Virus record (IMG/VR): IMGVR_UViG_3300025383_000009 | Length of the DNA: 64,000 nucleotides | Reading direction: 5' to 3' (one strand) | From: a virus | Lineage: Duplodnaviria > Caudoviricetes | Shown here: piece after piece, positions 3,443-35,979 of the stretch | Numbering within the stretch: position 1 is the first letter of the stretch | Layout of the letters: each line of letters opens with the position of its first letter | The notes under the pieces: model-generated | The model's database searches: none | Told to the model about the DNA's origin: nothing | Seen by the model: only the letters and a program-made list of their open reading frames with translations | Position numbers and translations under genes: made by a program

Positions 3443-6166
3443 TTAATATCCCTCTCTTCTTAGTTTTTTAGCGGCATCAATGATGCGTTGGTTATGTTTT
3501 GAAATCTTGCCTTTAATGCCAGCTTTTTCTGCAGGATGTTCTGCTGCTGCATGTTGTTTATGAAGCTCATGAGCATGTGTCAATGACTTACCCATATAGT
3601 CTGTCCACTTTTCATCAGTAGGCATGTTTGCTTCTGCGACTCTTTCTATGTCTGCAGTCCTGATACCAAACATCTTACGATGTTGAGATTTATGTTTACC
3701 ATACTTCTTAAAGTATTTGAGGCTATCTAAGTTTTTCATATCGTCCTCAACGTTCTTTGTTAAGAAGCCTTCTTTCATACCCATCATCTTTTTCTTTTGT
3801 TCTGCATCCTTCTTAGGAGTCTCTATGCCTTTATCAGCAGGGTTGTTTTGACCTGTAAAAGCTCTCTGTGCAACTTCTCTATTCTTAAAAAAGTTAGCAA
3901 GTACTTTATGACCTCTTGACTCTTCAACTTCTTCCTTCTTCATGACTTTAGATTGTGTCTTAACTTGCATGGTTTTAGGTTTAACTTGTGATCCTGGAAT
4001 ACCATCATGATGATGGGCTTCTGTTAATGATTTATGCGGTACAGATGTCTTTTGTGTACCATATGAACCACCATGGAAGTGTACTGTATCATTGTCACGT
4101 GTAGCTTTCCATTTACGACCTGTCTCATCTTTAAATGAATGAGATTCACCATGTTTTAACTTAGCGATTGGCTCATGGTGTTCAGGATGTAGTGGGATCG
4201 AGAATGATTTACCGTGGTTAACAGTCTTCATTGTACCCCAATCATACTTACGTGATGACACTGTTGCTTCTTCGATATGTTCTACCTCTTCTTTTTGTGT
4301 GCCAAGCTTCTTAGTAGCACGGTCAATACCAGCGATACGTTTGTTTGCTTTCTTAAAGTCTGCATAAGACTTCTTAGAGTGTTTCTCTGCAGCTTCCCAG
4401 TCACCAGCTCTTGTATAGTGTGATGCCCATTCTCCAGCTTCTTTACCTGCATAAGTATGGGAACCAACATCTCTTGATGCTTTAGGAATGTATCTCATAA
4501 GTGTTGACTTAGATACTTCATCGATCTGTACTGATTCACCAATAGTATGAGCTAACTTATGTCTTTTAGCAAATTTTTGTGCTTGTTCAACATGATCTGC
4601 ATGTCCATGAAATTTACCTGATTTATCAATATTATTTTTAATATGATTTAAATCGCGTGACATCACTTTAACATTAAAATTAGATTTGTTATGATCCAAT
4701 TCTTTATCTACAGCATCATGAAATTTAGCAGGTTCATGAAATGTAATAGATTTTGCTTCATCGATCTGCTCTTCTTTAAGTGATCTCTCTGCACGCTCAT
4801 CACCTTTAACTCTATTTGATAGCTTACGCATATCATCTTTAGCAGTCTTCTTATAAGGGCTTTGATGGATAGCATAAGCACGATTCACGTCCTTAGCAGC
4901 TTTATCTCTGTAAGATTGGTATGTGCTCTTCTTTAACTCGTCAAGGTTAACTACTTCTTCTTTAGTTAATTTTTGTTTAGGTGTAACTGTTTGTCCTGCA
5001 GTTGCAGCATCATAAGCTTGACGTATAGTCTTATACTTAGATGGGCCACCTTCAACTGGAACTCCATTTCGTGTTGCACCACCACCTGCTTGTACTTTAA
5101 TTGGTTTAGTAGCGACCATCTTCTTAGTGATAGGATCGTATACTTTAGATTCGTCTAACTCTACGTCTTCTTTAGCGAGTTTTTGTTTTGCTTTATAAAC
5201 ACCATCTGCACGATTAAGATACTTCTTATCAAGATGTTTCATTTCAGGTGTATCATCAGAGAATTTACCATGTGTTTTGTCTCTAATATCTCTGAGTTTA
5301 GAATAGTTTTGTTGATACTTATCTTCTTCCTTCTCAGCTTTCTTAACATAAGAACCTAAAGTCTTCTTTGAGATCTCGTCGATTTGTTCAACTTCTTCTT
5401 TTAATTTAGCTACTCTATGTTTGTGCATCTTAACTATATCACCGCTAGCAGTTTTAATATGCCACATATCACCAGTACGTTCTTTTGATGAACCAACAAC
5501 TGTGCCGTGTTTACCAGAATCAAGACCAGAACCAGCTAATACAGCAGCTTTATGACCAACTGCTACTTTAGCATCACGATCGATAGGGCCATGTTCATAT
5601 CCTTCTTTAAAATCTTTAACTTCTTTTTTCTTTTGTGTTAAAGGGATAGGAGGATTTAAAACCTTTTTCTTGTCAACTACATCTGTACCGATACCTTTAT
5701 ACTCAATAGCTTCTGAAAGGTGTGCATCACATGATTTATGTGGACACTTATTAACATGATGCATGAAGTTTTGTGCATGTTCTTTTGATGGGAATTTAAA
5801 GAATACACCTTTATCAGATCCACCTGCATGTTCACCACCATGTTGTTTAACACCAGCCATGACATGCTCTACATCTTTTTCATGTGGTTGTTCATCGTAC
5901 TTAGAACCATCAGATACATGTACTAAATGCTCTTCTTTAGCTTCTCTCATGTCAACTTCTGCTGTAGAATTTTGTGATACTGCAGCTGACTCTTCTCTTT
6001 GTTTAGAATAGTATGCTGCGAGTGCCATTTGTTTACGCTTTGCAGCAGACTTACCTGCAAACTTAGGATTATCTGAGTGTACAAAGTCATCTATCCACTT
6101 ACCAGCTGGTGTGGACTTGGTTAAGATCTCATCTAGTCTTTGTGTTAGGTCTTTGTACGACTTCAT
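3443..6166 (-). CDS. Large His/Lys-rich repetitive putative internal head (poly)protein
   Basis: N-terminus MKSYKDLTQRLDE; repeats EEVEQIDEISKKTLGSYVKKA, NLDELKKSTYQSYRDKA, QIDEVSKSTLMRYIPKA. Confidence 0.6.
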   Translation of the reverse strand: MKSYKDLTQRLDEILTKSTPAGKWIDDFVHSDNPKFAGKSAAKRKQMALAAYYSKQREESAAVSQNSTAEVDMREAKEEHLVHVSDGSKYDEQPHEKDVEHVMAGVKQHGGEHAGGSDKGVFFKFPSKEHAQNFMHHVNKCPHKSCDAHLSEAIEYKGIGTDVVDKKKVLNPPIPLTQKKKEVKDFKEGYEHGPIDRDAKVAVGHKAAVLAGSGLDSGKHGTVVGSSKERTGDMWHIKTASGDIVKMHKHRVAKLKEEVEQIDEISKKTLGSYVKKAEKEEDKYQQNYSKLRDIRDKTHGKFSDDTPEMKHLDKKYLNRADGVYKAKQKLAKEDVELDESKVYDPITKKMVATKPIKVQAGGGATRNGVPVEGGPSKYKTIRQAYDAATAGQTVTPKQKLTKEEVVNLDELKKSTYQSYRDKAAKDVNRAYAIHQSPYKKTAKDDMRKLSNRVKGDERAERSLKEEQIDEAKSITFHEPAKFHDAVDKELDHNKSNFNVKVMSRDLNHIKNNIDKSGKFHGHADHVEQAQKFAKRHKLAHTIGESVQIDEVSKSTLMRYIPKASRDVGSHTYAGKEAGEWASHYTRAGDWEAAEKHSKKSYADFKKANKRIAGIDRATKKLGTQKEEVEHIEEATVSSRKYDWGTMKTVNHGKSFSIPLHPEHHEPIAKLKHGESHSFKDETGRKWKATRDNDTVHFHGGSYGTQKTSVPHKSLTEAHHHDGIPGSQVKPKTMQVKTQSKVMKKEEVEESRGHKVLANFFKNREVAQRAFTGQNNPADKGIETPKKDAEQKKKMMGMKEGFLTKNVEDDMKNLDSLKYFKKYGKHKSQHRKMFGIRTADIERVAEANMPTDEKWTDYMGKSLTHAHELHKQHAAAEHPAEKAGIKGKISKHNQRIIDAAKKLRREGY

Positions 6167-6168
6167 TC

Positions 6169-6627
6169 TTATTCTCCGGGTTTCTTAATTTGTTTTAATG
6201 ATGCGAGGATTTGCCATTCCCACATCTTATGTTTATCCATACGGTCTGCTACAAAGTTAGCAAGGCCTTGTTGTTTTTCTCTTGTAGCATCATCAAATAG
6301 CTCTGTCAATACGTGTAGTATCTCTGTGTTTGCATGTAGTAAGTTAACTAACATCTCACTGATGTTTTCAGGCTTAACTTTATCTTCCTCTATAGTCTTA
6401 TAGCTATGGATCTCTTCAAGGCTGATAGGTGCATACACATCAAGCTTACGCAAGTTCTCTGCAAATGGGTCTACAGCTCCATAGGTGTCTTCATAGATCT
6501 TTTGGAAGAACTTATGGTACTGACTAAAGAACATCCCTTCCACGTTCCAATGGTATGAATGACTCTTGAAGTACATACAAAACGTATTACCCAATGCAAC
6601 CTTCAACGTAGCGATTAGCTTTTCCAT
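6169..6627 (-). CDS. dps: Dps/ferritin-like DNA-binding protein
   Basis: HSYHWNVEG, YHKFF and AVDPFAENL ferroxidase-type residues; start moved to MEKLIATLK at 6627 to avoid overlap. Confidence 0.9.
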   Translation of the reverse strand: MEKLIATLKVALGNTFCMYFKSHSYHWNVEGMFFSQYHKFFQKIYEDTYGAVDPFAENLRKLDVYAPISLEEIHSYKTIEEDKVKPENISEMLVNLLHANTEILHVLTELFDDATREKQQGLANFVADRMDKHKMWEWQILASLKQIKKPGE

Positions 6628-6629
6628 AT

Positions 6630-8402
6630 TTATTTTCTCTCGGTTTGCTGTCTCATCCATGAATCATAATCTAGGAGAGTATTAAGGTTTTCTTTTTTAA
6701 TCTTCTTTTCAAAGAAAGCACTAAAGCCTTTGCCTTTTTGTTTATTTGGTTCATCATCTGCTGGTGGTGCCATATTAGCTGGTAGTGGTACAACCTTAGT
6801 AACCTTTTGGCCTTCTACTTCACCGTCTGCCGACTCCTGTGTATACTCGCCGTCTTTTGTGATGTAGCATTCTTTACCGTACTTCTTACCAGCTGCTCCA
6901 GCTTCTCCTCTTGATTTATGAGGGCCAGATAAGATATCGTTTGACGCTGTACATCTTACGTAGTAACCAGCTTCGTGTTCAGGTTTGATCTGTACACCTG
7001 CTGTCTCGTTCTTTGTCATCACAGACTCAGTAGCATACATGACTTTACGTCTACGTAGGTGACGATCTGTCTCTAGTGTATGACCAACTTCGGTATGTTT
7101 ATGGAACGGGTACTTTTGTAAATCATCGATCTGCTGTGAGATGTTAGGGTCTAAGACTTGCTTGATCTCTTTGTCATCAGGTATGATGCCTTGGTTCATC
7201 TTATGTAGTTTCATGAAGTCAGAGTATCTTAATACGTCTTGAGCTATGTTATAGGTGTTAGATACGCCTTCCTTGATAGTCATCTTATCAAGCTCGGCTT
7301 TATGTTTTTCCCAATGTTCTTTGTGAGAATCAAAGCATCCTAGTTTCTCTAGTGATTCTCTTGACTTCTTATGAGCTTCTTGAGCATCCTTAACATGTTT
7401 AAAGCCATATAGTTCTGGCTTGGACGGGTCGAAGTCATAGATCTTAAGGTATGCATCAGTTGTCTTGATAGCATTTAACATAGCAACTGGATCTGTAGCT
7501 TTGTCCATAGTTAGTTTAAAGGCTTTTGAGCCTTGTGGACAATGATGCATATTAGTTGTCGTGTAGCCTTTGTAGGAGATCTCATGACCTTCGTTGACCT
7601 CTACTTGCTCAGGCACACAGTTAGGGACTGTCTTACCATTTTTCTTTTTAAGGCCGATAGCCTTGTAGCCTTTCCAACATGCTTTAGATAGGGACTTAGC
7701 TTCTACTAATGACACATCCTTCACCCATTTCCTATGTAAGGTGCCAGTGTTATCAACTACGACTAGGTAGTTTGATCCACGGTCCATGATCTCGTACTGA
7801 TGACCAGCAGACTCAACGATGTCACCCACATGGTAGATCTCACCTTTAAAGTACTTCTCTCTAAGTATGTCTACTGAGAACTTGATATCTTCTTTGATTA
7901 GTTCAAGACCTTGGACTTGTCTCATCTCGTTCATGATCCTACGAGCGTCAAGTTCACGTACCATTGATGGCAGTTGTTTCTTAAACGATGTAAAGTCACC
8001 CTTGGTGACCATTGATTTGATCTTTGAGAAGTCAACGTCATTGCCTGTGGTGACAACGTTCATTGACTCGTATAGCTTGGCTTTATCTTCTGAAGCAACT
8101 ACGATGACATCCTTGTACCTCTTCTTAAGAGCTGTTAGTTCAGAAGCAAAGTTTGACTCGTTCAATGCCTTAAAGTTCATTGAACCAAACATCATCTCAA
8201 GGAAGTGTAGCTTACGATCTACTGGTAGGCTATCCTTGTCTTCTGTAACATAGATTATGTGGTCGGCAGAGTTTGACTCAACTAGCTTATGGACTAGCTT
8301 AAGAGTCATCTCAGTGACCGAGGTAGGCGGGTTAAAGCTTCCGACTGTCATGATGACGGTCTTAGAAGGCAATTCCCGTATGAGTTGTCTATAGTTCTTC
8401 AT
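6630..8402 (-). CDS. Cytidylyltransferase-like (HIGH-family) protein with degenerate HxGH motif and appended modules
   Basis: VGSFNPPTSVTE where the paralog has GRMNPPTTGH; later LREKYFKGEIYHVGD and CWKGY...VPNCVP modules; N-terminus MKNYRQLIRE. Confidence 0.7.
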   Translation of the reverse strand: MKNYRQLIRELPSKTVIMTVGSFNPPTSVTEMTLKLVHKLVESNSADHIIYVTEDKDSLPVDRKLHFLEMMFGSMNFKALNESNFASELTALKKRYKDVIVVASEDKAKLYESMNVVTTGNDVDFSKIKSMVTKGDFTSFKKQLPSMVRELDARRIMNEMRQVQGLELIKEDIKFSVDILREKYFKGEIYHVGDIVESAGHQYEIMDRGSNYLVVVDNTGTLHRKWVKDVSLVEAKSLSKACWKGYKAIGLKKKNGKTVPNCVPEQVEVNEGHEISYKGYTTTNMHHCPQGSKAFKLTMDKATDPVAMLNAIKTTDAYLKIYDFDPSKPELYGFKHVKDAQEAHKKSRESLEKLGCFDSHKEHWEKHKAELDKMTIKEGVSNTYNIAQDVLRYSDFMKLHKMNQGIIPDDKEIKQVLDPNISQQIDDLQKYPFHKHTEVGHTLETDRHLRRRKVMYATESVMTKNETAGVQIKPEHEAGYYVRCTASNDILSGPHKSRGEAGAAGKKYGKECYITKDGEYTQESADGEVEGQKVTKVVPLPANMAPPADDEPNKQKGKGFSAFFEKKIKKENLNTLLDYDSWMRQQTERK

Positions 8403-9610: not shown

Positions 9611-10221
9611 TACTTGCTCCCTTGTTGTACGTCATGCATTAGTTCTTTTGCATGTTTATCTGATACATGCTCTGGTACACCCTTACGAAACTCATGGAAG
9701 TTACCTGATTTTGCATGCTCTCTTTGTTTAGTGCCTGATACGCCTGATGTACCCTCAGAATCTGGATCTCTATGACCAGCAGAGTGTACTGTTATCTTCT
9801 TAAAGTTATAATGCCCGTGTCCGGCTTTCTTGTTATTATACCTATTTAACAGCGTCGTCATCTCCTTCTTACGATCTGATCCTACCACAACATGTAGGTG
9901 AGTTACACCTTTCTTATGTAGATCAGCTGCATGGTGTAATATGGTTGGATGCTCGGCAGATGATGCCTTAATGTTTGTCTTAGGTGAGAAGCGTTTAAGG
10001 TGTTTAAGCTTTTGCTCTGGTGATAGTGGGTTCTTTTTCTTATCATGGCTATGTGATGTCACCACTGTATGACCAGCTTCATGTTTATCAGCCACGTCAT
10101 GGACCTTCTTGATAAGTGAAAGATGACCAGTCGTAGGAGGGTTCATACGACCATAAGTCAATACATGATGCTTAGCACCAGTATCCTCTGTGATAAAATC
10201 TTTTAGACTTAGCAATTCCAT
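9610..10221 (-). CDS. Cytidylyltransferase-like (HIGH-family) nucleotidyltransferase
   Basis: TYGRMNPPTTGH, HSHDKKKNPL, VVGSDR and SGTKQR (KMSKS-like) motifs. Confidence 0.85.
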   Translation of the reverse strand: MELLSLKDFITEDTGAKHHVLTYGRMNPPTTGHLSLIKKVHDVADKHEAGHTVVTSHSHDKKKNPLSPEQKLKHLKRFSPKTNIKASSAEHPTILHHAADLHKKGVTHLHVVVGSDRKKEMTTLLNRYNNKKAGHGHYNFKKITVHSAGHRDPDSEGTSGVSGTKQREHAKSGNFHEFRKGVPEHVSDKHAKELMHDVQQGSK

Positions 10222-10484
10222 TTTCTTAAAGCTAATGCCTTCCTTGTTGGTTTGCCATGTTCATCCTTCATAGGACCTTTAACTCCACCCATACGAGCGC
10301 AGAAAGACTTACGTCGTCCTGCAGCCTTACCACCTTTTTTAAGTTTGGATGGTGGTGTTGTTACAGCCATTTTTAAATGATGACCAGGATTCTCTCTGTT
10401 ATACTTATCTACACCAGCACGGGTTAAACCACCGGTCTCTGACTTGTACTTGTCTTCTTTAAGGTACTCTTTAAACGTTAGCAT
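10209..10484 (-). CDS. Conserved basic T4-like phage protein (DUF6321-like)
   Basis: GGLTRAG...RRKSFCARMGG...ALRKWNC; N-terminus MLTFKEYLKE. Confidence 0.7.
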   Translation of the reverse strand: MLTFKEYLKEDKYKSETGGLTRAGVDKYNRENPGHHLKMAVTTPPSKLKKGGKAAGRRKSFCARMGGVKGPMKDEHGKPTRKALALRKWNC

Positions 10485-32934: not shown

Positions 32935-33486
32935 TTAACTATCCATATCGTACTGTTGACCAGAGGCGTAATTAGCATCTTTAGCGTAGTCAGTTGGGTT
33001 ATCTCTTTCATTTAAGAGTTCTCTAACACGGTCGATACCAGTAGACGGCGTTAAGTTGTCCGTGATCTCGATTTGACGAGGTTTCTTAGATTCAGGGATA
33101 ACATTCTCAAGAGCGATACGTAAGATGCCATCTTTAAATTCAGCACCACGCACTTCGACCGTATCAGCCAACTTGATTGACTTAGTGAACGAACGCGTTC
33201 CGATACCTTTGTGGAGGTATTGTACATTGCCATCATCAGGATTCTTTTGTCCTTTGATGATCAATAAGCCTTCTTCTAAAGTGATAGTTACCTCTTGCTT
33301 ATTGAAACCAGCGATAGCCAATTCAACGATATATTCGTAATCGTCTAGCTTAATAATGTTGTGAGGTGGGAATGCTTGGTTGTTGTTTAGTGGTGCTGCG
33401 AGCATCTCATCAATCTCTCTTAGCATACTTTCAAAACCAATAGTTTGTGGCCAGATAGGGCCGAATGATACATTTGTAGTTCGCAT
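32935..33486 (-). CDS. hsp20: Small heat-shock protein (IbpA/Hsp20)
   Basis: FPPHNII, VELAIAGF, YLHKGIGTRSF, AEFKDGIL. Confidence 0.95.
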   Translation of the reverse strand: MRTTNVSFGPIWPQTIGFESMLREIDEMLAAPLNNNQAFPPHNIIKLDDYEYIVELAIAGFNKQEVTITLEEGLLIIKGQKNPDDGNVQYLHKGIGTRSFTKSIKLADTVEVRGAEFKDGILRIALENVIPESKKPRQIEITDNLTPSTGIDRVRELLNERDNPTDYAKDANYASGQQYDMDS

Positions 33487-33669: not shown

Positions 33670-33906
33670 TTAGGCTGCATCATCTATGATGTCTTGTAGT
33701 GCTTGGTTGATTGGCTTATAGCCATAGTAGTGGAGCTTCTCTGACTTGCGGTCTAGAAAGTCTCGACGTTTTTCAATATCTCTTGCTCTATAGGCAGCTT
33801 CAAGGATCATCGTATAACGGTTACCTTCACGAGTCTTTTCATGTGCTGCAAGTACTGCTGCTACGTCTACTCTTGGTAAATCAGCCTTCTTTTTGACTTG
33901 TTGCAT
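33670..33906 (-). CDS. rpoZ: RNA polymerase omega subunit-like protein
   Basis: PRVDV...GNRYTMILEAAYRARDI...KPINQALQDI vs RpoZ ARVTV...GNRFDLVLVAARRARQM...KTTVIALREI; GGAGG RBS before MQQVKK. Confidence 0.75.
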   Translation of the reverse strand: MQQVKKKADLPRVDVAAVLAAHEKTREGNRYTMILEAAYRARDIEKRRDFLDRKSEKLHYYGYKPINQALQDIIDDAA

Positions 33907-34081
33907 TCCACTGTCCTCCATAATAACGTTCAAGTTGACCTACATTATTTAATCTTTGATCACCGTCTTGTGGTGTGTCAAGCTTAACTGACCAGTCAAT
34001 CGCATCAAAGTTCTTATCAAATTCTTTGGTGGCAGTCTTAGATAAGATGCTGTCACCGGTGATATCATTCTTTGCTGCCAT
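33881..34081 (-). CDS. Small conserved phage protein
   Basis: MAAKNDITGDSILSK...FDKNFDAI. Confidence 0.65.
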   Translation of the reverse strand: MAAKNDITGDSILSKTATKEFDKNFDAIDWSVKLDTPQDGDQRLNNVGQLERYYGGQWNATSQKEG

Positions 34082-34156: not shown

Positions 34157-34426
34157 TTAATATAATTTTTTAGGTGGTTGACTTGATGCTACTTTTTTCA
34201 ACCAACGTTTCTTCGCCTGACTCTTTGCTTTCTTACGAGCTACACATGGCTTTTCATACTCCATACGTTCTCTTATTTCAATCAGAAGCCCTGAGTCTTC
34301 TACTTTGTTTCTAAACTTACGAAAAGCTTTTTCAAATTGGCCTTCTTGTACGTCTACAAATAACCCTTGTTTAGAGTCACTTTGTTTTGGCCTAGGTTTA
34401 CGATTAAATTCAGCCATTAGTAACAA
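34157..34426 (-). CDS. rpsU: 30S ribosomal protein bS21
   Basis: FEKAFRKFRNKVEDSGLL.EIRERMEYEKP..ARKK. Confidence 0.9.
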   Translation of the reverse strand: MLLMAEFNRKPRPKQSDSKQGLFVDVQEGQFEKAFRKFRNKVEDSGLLIEIRERMEYEKPCVARKKAKSQAKKRWLKKVASSQPPKKLY

Positions 34427-34725
34427 GTTCTCGTTCTAGTCACGTTACCATATTGATCTACTGACTCAACCCATGCTGTACAGTTTTGATATACAGTTGG
34501 AGCTTGTTGATAGATCACTGTAGGTGCTGGTTGTACATAACGTGGTTGCGCTAGTTCGTAACCGATAACTCCACCAATTAAAGCTGGAGCAACCCAATTT
34601 ACACCACCTCCATGATAATACCCACCATGGTAACCACCATAATAGCCGCCATATCCGCCATGATAACCTGCGAATGCTGAGGTTGATGCTGTCGCTAATG
34701 CTAATACTGCTATAAGTTTTTTCAT
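34417..34725 (-). CDS. Secreted Gly/Tyr-rich protein
   Basis: Signal peptide MKKLIAVLALATASTSAFA; GGYY repeats; ALIGGVIG helix. Confidence 0.65.
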   Translation of the reverse strand: MKKLIAVLALATASTSAFAGYHGGYGGYYGGYHGGYYHGGGVNWVAPALIGGVIGYELAQPRYVQPAPTVIYQQAPTVYQNCTAWVESVDQYGNVTRTRTCY

Positions 34726-34748
34726 TGTACTTCTCCTATTCTGAGACC

Positions 34749-34777
34749 ATTGTACCATATTTATTAATTATTGTACA
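34749..34777 (-). promoter_or_regulatory. Early promoter TGTACA-N17-TACAAT
   Basis: Preceded by GGGCCTA like other copies; upstream of the secreted protein and rpsU. Confidence 0.65.
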
Positions 34778-35159
34778 TAGGCCCAATTGTAACAATTTGT
34801 AACCACTTTTTAGATCTATTCTTATGCCATGCCTTAATAGATTCAGACATTTTTCTTTTTTGTTCATCTGACATTACAAATGACTTTTTACCTTTAGTTG
34901 CTAAACTCATTTTGCGCTTAGTTTCTTCAGATCTAGGAACTCCTGCTAAACCGCCTTTAGTTCCTTTTTTGCTTCTACTTATCTTTTTCTTAGATTCTTC
35001 AGTATGTTTTTTACCATACCAGTGGCTTTCTTCTTTTGGAAGACCTTTATTCCATGAATCTTCTATTATAATTTCAGAGTTAGCTTCTAGTTCTTCTTTA
35101 GTTATAATCATAGTTTTAAGGGAATTAAACTCTTCTGGAACCGGGGATAAATATGACAT
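34764..35159 (-). mobile_element. NUMOD3-repeat protein lacking a recognisable nuclease domain (homing-endonuclease derivative)
   Basis: YGKKHTEESKKKIS and RSEETKRKMS repeats; AGGAG RBS supports start MSYLSP at 35159. Confidence 0.7.
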
Positions 35160-35226
35160 GCTGGCACTCCTTTTAGTGTTAGAGTCCTTGGAGATTGCCG
35201 TCTCGCGAAGGACATTTTTCATATTA

Positions 35227-35234
35227 TATTTATA
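35227..35234 (-). promoter_or_regulatory. Late promoter TATAAATA
   Basis: Exact motif upstream of the structured leader of the NUMOD3 gene. Confidence 0.65.
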
Positions 35235-35260
35235 AAAAAGGGACCTCTAGGATCCCTTTT
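35234..35260. terminator. Probable bidirectional intrinsic terminator after pqqA
   Basis: A tract, GGGACC-TCTA-GGATCCC imperfect stem, T tract. Confidence 0.65.
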
Positions 35261-35280
35261 ATTCTTTAAGAATGATCGAA

Positions 35281-35352
35281 TTAACGATTCATTACATAAA
35301 GGGTAACTTCAAAGCCAAAGCGCATTTCAGTTGCTTGAGGTTTCGTCCACAT
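35281..35352 (-). CDS. pqqA: PQQ precursor peptide PqqA (missing from ORF track)
   Basis: MWTKPQATEMRFGFEVTLYVMNR*: 23 aa, MW..P start, invariant E-x-x-x-Y, AAGGAG RBS. Confidence 0.95.
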   Translation of the reverse strand: MWTKPQATEMRFGFEVTLYVMNR

Positions 35353-35535
35353 AGTATTTCTCCTTTGTTTATAAAAATTTATAAACTCAGATCGTTAGAG
35401 AGAACGGCTTTTAACTCAGACATTCAAGGTCTAACTTGAGGCTCATATTCCTGTAGAGTTTCCCCTACATTACTATCTATACAATACTCTTAAAAAGAGA
35501 CTAGTTAAAAGTATTAATACTTAGTAATCCTGTGC

Positions 35536-35979
35536 TTAATATTCTGTATCAGATTTAGGCATCCTTTTGATGCCACCAATGTTATATTTTGGTACGAGTT
35601 CCCACTCACCCTTCTCTTTAAAGGACACTACCTTTATCTGAGATAAGCTAGCTTTTGGTTCTGCCTTAGACTTATCAAGGATCTTCAGCAGACCCCAGTC
35701 TTGAAGGAGTTCAGCAATGATATTGCGTCTCTCAATGTCAGACATGGAGATATCCGATTCCTTGCCATCTAGGGCAAATAATTCTTTGAAATGTACAATG
35801 AAGTACTTTCCTTGTTTATGTAGTATGTGGCATGATTGGAATAGCTTTTTGTCTTTTCGACTTGCTATACCTATGCGAGTTAGAGTCTCTCTGACTTTGA
35901 GGAAGTTATCCGGTTCGATCAAGTCAACTTCTAACATTGCATCTGGTGTCCAATCATAATATATCATGATACTTGTCAT
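35536..35979 (-). CDS. regA: Translational repressor RegA
   Basis: PDNFLKVRETLTRIGIAS..K.L.QSCHILHKQGKYFIVHFKELFALDG. Confidence 0.97.
   Translation of the reverse strand: MTSIMIYYDWTPDAMLEVDLIEPDNFLKVRETLTRIGIASRKDKKLFQSCHILHKQGKYFIVHFKELFALDGKESDISMSDIERRNIIAELLQDWGLLKILDKSKAEPKASLSQIKVVSFKEKGEWELVPKYNIGGIKRMPKSDTEY

Follow-up and report, generated by a model that had tools for sequence, protein, structure and literature searches.

A pqqA gene for the PQQ precursor peptide in a freshwater T4-like phage of a probable Methylophilaceae-type methylotroph

Genome analysis confirmed the presence of a genuine pqqA gene, encoding the precursor peptide PqqA of the cofactor PQQ, on a genuine phage genome. 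With a probability of roughly 0.72, this gene is a functional auxiliary metabolic gene of a freshwater T4-like myophage, which would resupply the precursor in a Methylophilaceae-type methylotroph and so sustain PQQ-dependent methanol oxidation. The stretch of DNA analysed, hereafter the window, comprises 64,000 nucleotides and corresponds to bases 48262–112261 of a 160,126-bp IMG/VR record, which originates from freshwater metagenomes and is 99% complete according to CheckV.

The pqqA gene and its place in the phage genome

The gene is read on the minus strand from the start codon ATG (35352–35350) to the stop codon TAA (35283–35281), and its translation is MWTKPQATEMRFGFEVTLYVMNR. The peptide of 23 residues lies within the range of approximately 20–30 expected for a short ribosomal peptide. 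An earlier note, made from the letters of the window, had proposed an open reading frame of this length as PqqA; its coordinates and residues are exact, the frame being located on the minus strand, and the proposed identity is borne out by the profiles TIGR02107 (36.8 bits against a cut-off of 20, E 2.4e-9, model positions 1–21 of 21) and PF08042 (40.3 bits against a cut-off of 21.1, E 2.8e-10, model positions 1–19 of 19). The back-translated PqqA pattern gave one match in the 64-kb window and 0 in 100 shuffles; accordingly, with both profile scores above the cut-offs, the match is not due to chance. The cross-link residues Glu15 and Tyr19 (E15-V-T-L-Y19) are present as the Glu-x3-Tyr pair, and the N-terminal W-x-K-P...R-x-G is common to PqqA of Methylophilaceae and Acinetobacter. 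No solved structure matching PqqA by sequence was found. Profile search and six-frame regex showed that pqqA is single-copy in the whole 160-kb record, at record positions 83541–83612.

The ribosome-binding site and the terminator, both of which had been claimed for this frame, were located on either side of it (Table 1). The terminator hairpin starts 20 nt past the stop codon and has a folding energy of −12.9 kcal/mol, its z-score being a modest −1.69; it was not listed by a simple consensus terminator scan. Of the related phage contigs inspected, most have an equivalent GC hairpin with a T-run 3′ of pqqA. No promoter was detected before pqqA in a consensus scan, and related phages have TGGTATAAT-like elements at this place.

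Table 1. Coordinates of pqqA, its predicted leader and signals, and the neighbouring genes in the window
Feature	Position	Strand	Basis and remarks
pqqA CDS	35281..35352	minus	23 codons and TAA; translation; TIGR02107 and PF08042 above curated cut-offs
Shine-Dalgarno AAGGAG	35360..35365	minus	7 nt before pqqA ATG; read from sequence
Intrinsic-terminator-like hairpin and U-run	35231..35260	minus	10-bp stem, 5-nt loop
Conserved, putatively structured leader, ~90 nt	35353..35443	minus	covariance model R1, 90.5 bits
Predicted helix P1, 5′ arm GUUAGA	35430..35435	minus	pairs with 35394–35399
Predicted helix P1, 3′ arm UCUAAC	35394..35399	minus	pairs with 35430–35435
Predicted hairpin P2, AU-rich, just 5′ of ribosome-binding site	35367..35386	minus	single-sequence MFE folds
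Small predicted hairpin UGUAG...CUACA upstream of leader	35452..35469	minus	alignment; different sequences in relatives
regA (T4-type translational repressor)	35536..35979	minus	phrog_242, E 1.7e-59; conserved upstream neighbour of pqqA
Homing-endonuclease-like ORF	34764..35222	minus	152 residues, three NUMOD3 motifs; PF07460, 62.2 bits

The gene pqqA is placed in the replication-gene block, just after regA. In coding-strand order it comes behind the clamp-loader genes gp44 and gp62 followed by the gene of RegA; T4-type core genes flank it on both sides, and about 190 of the approximately 215 ORFs lie on the minus strand, the same as pqqA. The window contains genes of DNA polymerase, SbcC-like nuclease, helicase, major head protein, portal, tail sheath and large terminase, and the T4 core set is represented by homologues of gp43, gp44, gp62, RegA, gp46-like, gp23, gp20, gp18 and gp17. 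The nearest cultured capsid belongs to the OM43 phage Melnitz (63% identity), while identity to cyanomyophages and pelagimyophages amounts to 60–62%. The phage is a T4-like myophage, a relative of Melnitz, pelagimyophages and cyanomyophages.

The genes pqqB, pqqC, pqqD and pqqE were not found across the whole 160-kb record; thus, the absence of other pqq genes, claimed earlier for the window, extends to the entire record. A gene for PQQ-dependent alcohol dehydrogenase or methanol dehydrogenase was not found in the whole record either. The phage gene is not adjacent to pqqBCDE; such adjacency is typical of PqqA, but not defining.

Directly after the pqqA terminator lies the homing-endonuclease-like ORF, whose NUMOD3 motifs are characteristic of such enzymes; it is an insertion outside the pqqA unit. 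The segment at approximately 34804–35231 is missing from close relatives, the homology of which resumes at about 34786–34803, and it varies from strain to strain, since two metagenome runs contain alternative contigs breaking at 34803 and 35315. Further downstream on the minus strand, a homologue of ribosomal protein S21 (34157–34426; PF01165, 54.6 bits; phrog_21469), an 87-residue ORF with a borderline match to RNA polymerase omega/Rpb6 (33670–33933; 25 bits against a cut-off of 26) and a small heat-shock protein HSP20 (32935–33486; 57.9 bits) were annotated. The phage S21 gave no host signal: its identity did not exceed 48% in 300 genomes of the class and was 36% to Ca. Methylopumilus.

That the viral contig is chimeric or contaminated with bacterial DNA has practically no probability; a chimeric contig had been named in the earlier note as a way for its claim to fail. 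The gene lies on the same strand as its phage neighbours, an identical contig from an independent run covers positions 34653–35939, that is regA, pqqA and the next ORF, and the 5-kb stretch around pqqA is present in 20 freshwater metagenome runs. Relatives assembled from other samples have the gene order unchanged; the independent assemblies and this conserved order exclude a chimeric contig. The T4-type flanks, the completeness of 99% and the independent contigs together place pqqA on a viral genome, as is required of an auxiliary metabolic gene.

pqqA in other phages and in Methylophilaceae

The retention of pqqA within the phage lineage was analysed with RegA as an anchor: the 80 IMG/VR loci closest in RegA were fetched first, and pqqA was sought in them afterwards. 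At RegA identity of 79% or higher, pqqA was found downstream on the same strand in 19 of 20 loci, one of the 19 being cut by the contig end after MWTKP. At RegA identity of 78% or lower, it was found in none of the 60 loci, which mostly have a GC content of about 31%. Accordingly, one T4-like lineage has kept pqqA at one position while its proteins diverged.

The search of viral databases suggested earlier revealed pqqA far beyond this lineage. A tblastn search against 50,697 GenBank phage records gave 12 matches, nine of which are cultured phages of Methylophilales/Methylophilaceae (Venkman, MEP301, MEP401, MEP402, P19250A and four Melnitz isolates) and one a spring-water metagenome phage (Manatee Spring phage). 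Venkman, MEP301 and Melnitz were described in 2023 as the only earlier OM43 phage isolates, forming three distinct viral groups (PMC10580990). Two further matches, labelled ‘Acinetobacter phage’, were rejected as phage because they are bacterial contigs with the full pqqABCDE operon. In these records of ‘Acinetobacter phage MD-2021a’ (CAKLQF020000010.1 and CAKLQH020000055.1) chromosomal pqqABCDE stands next to ppk, and they look like bacterial contigs filed as phage. Every genuine GenBank phage match with a named host infects Methylophilales or Methylophilaceae.

PqqA of the cultured phages is intact, orphan and 23–24 residues long, has its own ribosome-binding site and is 77–87% identical to the window peptide. 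The position of pqqA differs between these genomes; in Melnitz, it is located beside a tRNA-Leu gene, upstream of gp5. In the GenBank records, the gene is unannotated or overlain by an antisense ‘hypothetical protein’, as at positions 5961–6056 of Melnitz and 2067–2195 of Manatee Spring phage, where the antisense frame is probably a gene-caller artefact. Since pqqA is unannotated in nearly all GenBank methylophage records, gene callers systematically overlook it.

In IMG/VR, a degenerate pattern retrieved at least 120 contigs with pqqA. All 119 parsed matches are intact PqqA ORFs of 23–25 residues, essentially all of them are preceded by an AGGAG-type site at matching spacing, and most are letter-for-letter identical to host PqqA; no pqqB–E genes were found nearby in 120 pqqA-bearing stretches. 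Two further sequence elements recur among such contigs. About nine viral contigs that carry pqqA but are otherwise unrelated have ORFs with 45–71% identity to a DUF6321 protein of the window (10209–10484, minus strand). A domain of approximately 140 residues in a 786-residue protein (record positions 4926–7286, outside the window) has counterparts of 30–48% identity in about 20 pqqA-bearing viral contigs and also recurs in the baseplate-hub/lysozyme region of Melnitz. Both may be host-specific modules common to methylotroph phages.

Among 116 distinct DNA versions of pqqA, the entropy of the three codon positions was 0.37, 0.28 and 0.97 bits, and pN/pS was about 0.2, a value biased downward because the search pattern fixed eight residues. 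As judged from these sequence comparisons, viral pqqA is shown to be intact and conserved under selection. It is highly improbable that pqqA is a neutral passenger with no role as a gene, either left over from host DNA or serving as a patch of homology in recombination or integration. Some small temperate-looking phages do carry pqqA near recombination genes and on the strand opposite to its neighbours, as a passenger might lie. However, the peptide has been kept with its synonymous sites close to saturation, the ribosome-binding site, leader and terminator are all retained, and the lytic T4-like lineage kept pqqA while RegA diverged to 79% identity. Furthermore, the best DNA identity of the phage gene to any sampled bacterial copy was 53 of 66 nt (at most 80%), which excludes both a recent capture and an attachment-site remnant.

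The core EMRFGFEVT.Y, searched in one genome per prokaryote species, gave at least 120 matches, and the named records are almost all Methylophilaceae. The genera among the matches listed include Methylotenera, Methylophilus, Methylovorus, Methylobacillus and Ca. Methylopumilus, as well as others; the remaining matches listed bear vaguer labels such as Burkholderiales and Betaproteobacteria. The two commonest bacterial PqqA peptides are also the two commonest viral ones among the matches listed, and the phage peptide is identical to them, including the commonest peptide of Methylophilaceae, at 20 of 23 residues. Position 18 is occupied by Leu in the phage peptide and by Met in every sampled bacterial copy. 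The near-restriction of the core motif to Methylophilaceae, the identity of 20/23 and the hosts of the GenBank phages all agree with the Methylophilaceae-like host suggested earlier, and a Methylophilaceae-type methylotroph is supported as the predicted host.

In five Methylophilaceae genomes, two of them of 1.2–1.3 Mb, pqqE was found above the cut-off together with 3–7 dispersed copies of pqqA each. Published data for the family report 3–12 pqqA copies against single pqqB–G genes, a disproportion suggesting that the dosage of the precursor matters, and most pqqA copies are unlinked from pqqBCDE, both there and in the sampled genomes (PMC4109929).

The predicted leader RNA of pqqA

The region between regA and pqqA contains a putatively structured leader (Table 1). 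In order, it consists of the motif CUCAAG, helix P1 around a variable inner hairpin, the motif GAnCUG, the AU-rich hairpin P2 and the ribosome-binding site. When 20 leaders were aligned by MAFFT without regard to structure, 99.2% of P1 cells were paired, against no more than 58% in slid controls, and compensatory changes were found at five of the six P1 pairs (27 cells), which was reached by none of 500 shuffles. According to MFE folds of 14 phage leaders and six further leaders, the sequence of P2 varies among relatives while the hairpin is kept. The transcript may start at the small hairpin UGUAG...CUACA.

The leader motif was found 31–41 nt upstream of the pqqA start in all 19 regex matches and occurs once in the whole phage record. 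The covariance model detected six more viral contigs, with the leader always directly before pqqA. Among bacteria, the leader is present in five of 91 sampled Methylophilaceae genomes, which are small (1.2–1.4 Mb, about 33% GC); there it stands before the first gene of a tandem pqqA pair. A leader with a predicted covarying helix is therefore common to phages and small-genome Methylophilaceae, probably of the OM43 type; the phage leaders have an extra hairpin upstream as compared with the chromosomal ones. The tandem genes of these small genomes are approximately 200 nt apart, the structured leader standing on the first only, and the second has a different conserved upstream region. The leader was not detected at any of the three pqqA copies of Ca. 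Methylopumilus universalis (best score 21.7 bits).

Comparison of the window with Rfam 15 gave no match to the leader at gathering score and only chance-level matches (E of at least 0.29) within 35200–35560, and no literature on a leader or regulatory RNA naming pqqA was found.

In folds, the ribosome-binding site pairs with conserved CUC and CU elements, which might sequester it. The mean pairing probability of GGAG was higher with the native upstream part in 15 of 20 leaders, but the mean of 0.70 is not clearly above that of the composition control with the upstream part shuffled (0.64).

The strong covariation of the leader helix and its occurrence in both phages and small-genome, probably OM43-type Methylophilaceae could also mean that the functional product is a structured RNA, formed by the leader and the short ORF as a regulatory RNA, and not the peptide. 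We consider this scarcely probable: many phage copies without the leader keep the peptide, and conservation at the level of codons points to translation. A broader proposal, which for now is doubtful, takes the leader for an undescribed cis-regulatory RNA that would tune PqqA output, perhaps in response to PQQ, a protein or an intermediate of the pathway; along with the gene, the phage would then have taken over the control logic of the host, and pqqA would be a near-universal hallmark of Methylophilaceae phages. If this were true, the supply of the precursor peptide would be the point at which infection endangers the energy metabolism of methylotrophs. The leader RNA offers a testable handle on the control of PqqA supply in Methylophilaceae.

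Proposed role of the phage gene and its relation to known systems

It is established that the skeleton of PQQ derives from PqqA, in which PqqE joins the conserved Glu and Tyr after PqqD has been recruited to its N-terminal portion (PMC10906245). Expression of the phage gene during infection, processing of its product by host enzymes and a benefit to the phage are what we infer for the window phage. The 23-residue peptide would be made in the infected cell and bound by the host chaperone PqqD, as is to be expected from how closely it resembles host PqqA; the host radical-SAM enzyme PqqE would then cross-link Glu15 to Tyr19, and host PqqB, PqqC and PqqF/G would complete the conversion to PQQ. 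Each PQQ costs one peptide, and a shutdown of host gene expression by the phage is to be expected, so a phage copy would keep the precursor flowing. PQQ-dependent methanol dehydrogenases of the XoxF/MxaF type could in this way continue to supply energy for phage production. This resupply of the precursor is favoured because the phage brings only the substrate that is consumed, while the host family has the enzymes. A point against this reading is that PQQ itself is a reusable cofactor and may not become limiting within one infection cycle. Among the listed runs with the 5-kb stretch there was no RNA run; one sediment metatranscriptome contained 7% of its words.

The same gene and the same processing may serve a benefit other than methanol oxidation, through other PQQ dehydrogenases, as a redox protectant or by release of PQQ. 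The phage has no methanol dehydrogenase gene, so nothing ties pqqA to that enzyme specifically, and culture media of OM43 are supplemented with PQQ (PMC9004378), which hints at PQQ exchange with the environment. Nevertheless, this alternative is unlikely, as the cultured carriers all infect obligate or near-obligate methylotrophs, and in such methylotrophs PQQ is known to serve mainly the PQQ-dependent methanol dehydrogenase (PMC7678222).

Even less probable, and indeed very unlikely, is a decoy or inhibitor, by which the phage peptide would occupy PqqD and PqqE without yielding PQQ and would lower PQQ synthesis of the host. A decoy would be expected to diverge at the reactive residues, whereas Glu15, Tyr19 and the whole PqqA leader motif are kept and most viral copies are identical to host PqqA; only Leu18, present in the window peptide and in some phage relatives in place of the Met of the sampled hosts, would fit such a role.

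The resupply of precursor for methanol oxidation has a published precedent, and the novelty that the earlier note implied for a phage-encoded PqqA was too high. In 2020, viral PqqA was described in the methylotroph-phage population VP_266 of Lake Baikal and interpreted as auxiliary to methanol oxidation (Coutinho et al. 2020, Microbiome 8:163, PMC7678222), and in 2026 PqqA was listed among viral phosphorus-cycling genes (PMC13188868). Similar to the window phage, VP_266 is an uncultured freshwater phage with a predicted Methylophilaceae-type methylotroph as host, and its pqqA was read as a gene of PQQ supply. As compared by description and not by sequence, VP_266 differs in that it also encodes methanol dehydrogenase, which the window phage lacks. 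The VP_266 paper does not contain the gene order after regA, the leader RNA or the breadth of pqqA across cultured phages. The window pqqA is thus a well-supported new example of an already reported viral gene; new here are the constant place of the gene behind regA in a T4-like lineage from fresh water, the test of presence and absence anchored on RegA, and the predicted covarying leader shared with small-genome Methylophilaceae, probably of the OM43 type.

The cultured methylophages Melnitz, Venkman, MEP301, MEP401, MEP402 and P19250A share with the window phage an intact orphan PqqA, but differ in the genomic position of the gene and in that it was left unannotated; the word pqqA was not found in the OM43-phage papers searched. 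The chromosomal pqqA genes of Methylophilaceae belong to the same family, have nearly the same sequence and mostly stand alone, and the first tandem copy in genomes of 1.2–1.4 Mb has the same predicted leader architecture; the window gene differs from them in its viral carrier, in Leu18 instead of Met and in the nucleotide identity of at most 80%.

In cyanophages, psbA is an auxiliary gene that resupplies a rapidly consumed component of the host. Like psbA, the phage pqqA is a single gene, carried without the other genes of the pathway, for a component of host energy metabolism that turns over fast. In contrast to psbA, it would provide not an enzyme subunit but a peptide that is sacrificed as the substrate for a cofactor.

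In lakes and coastal seas, much of the methanol and other one-carbon compounds is consumed by Methylophilaceae (OM43, LD28 and related bacteria). For uncultured phages, pqqA offers a cheap marker of the host. If methylophages routinely carry the consumed part of PQQ synthesis, infection would keep methanol oxidation running and would not stop it, which, if true, would have a bearing on estimates of carbon flux.
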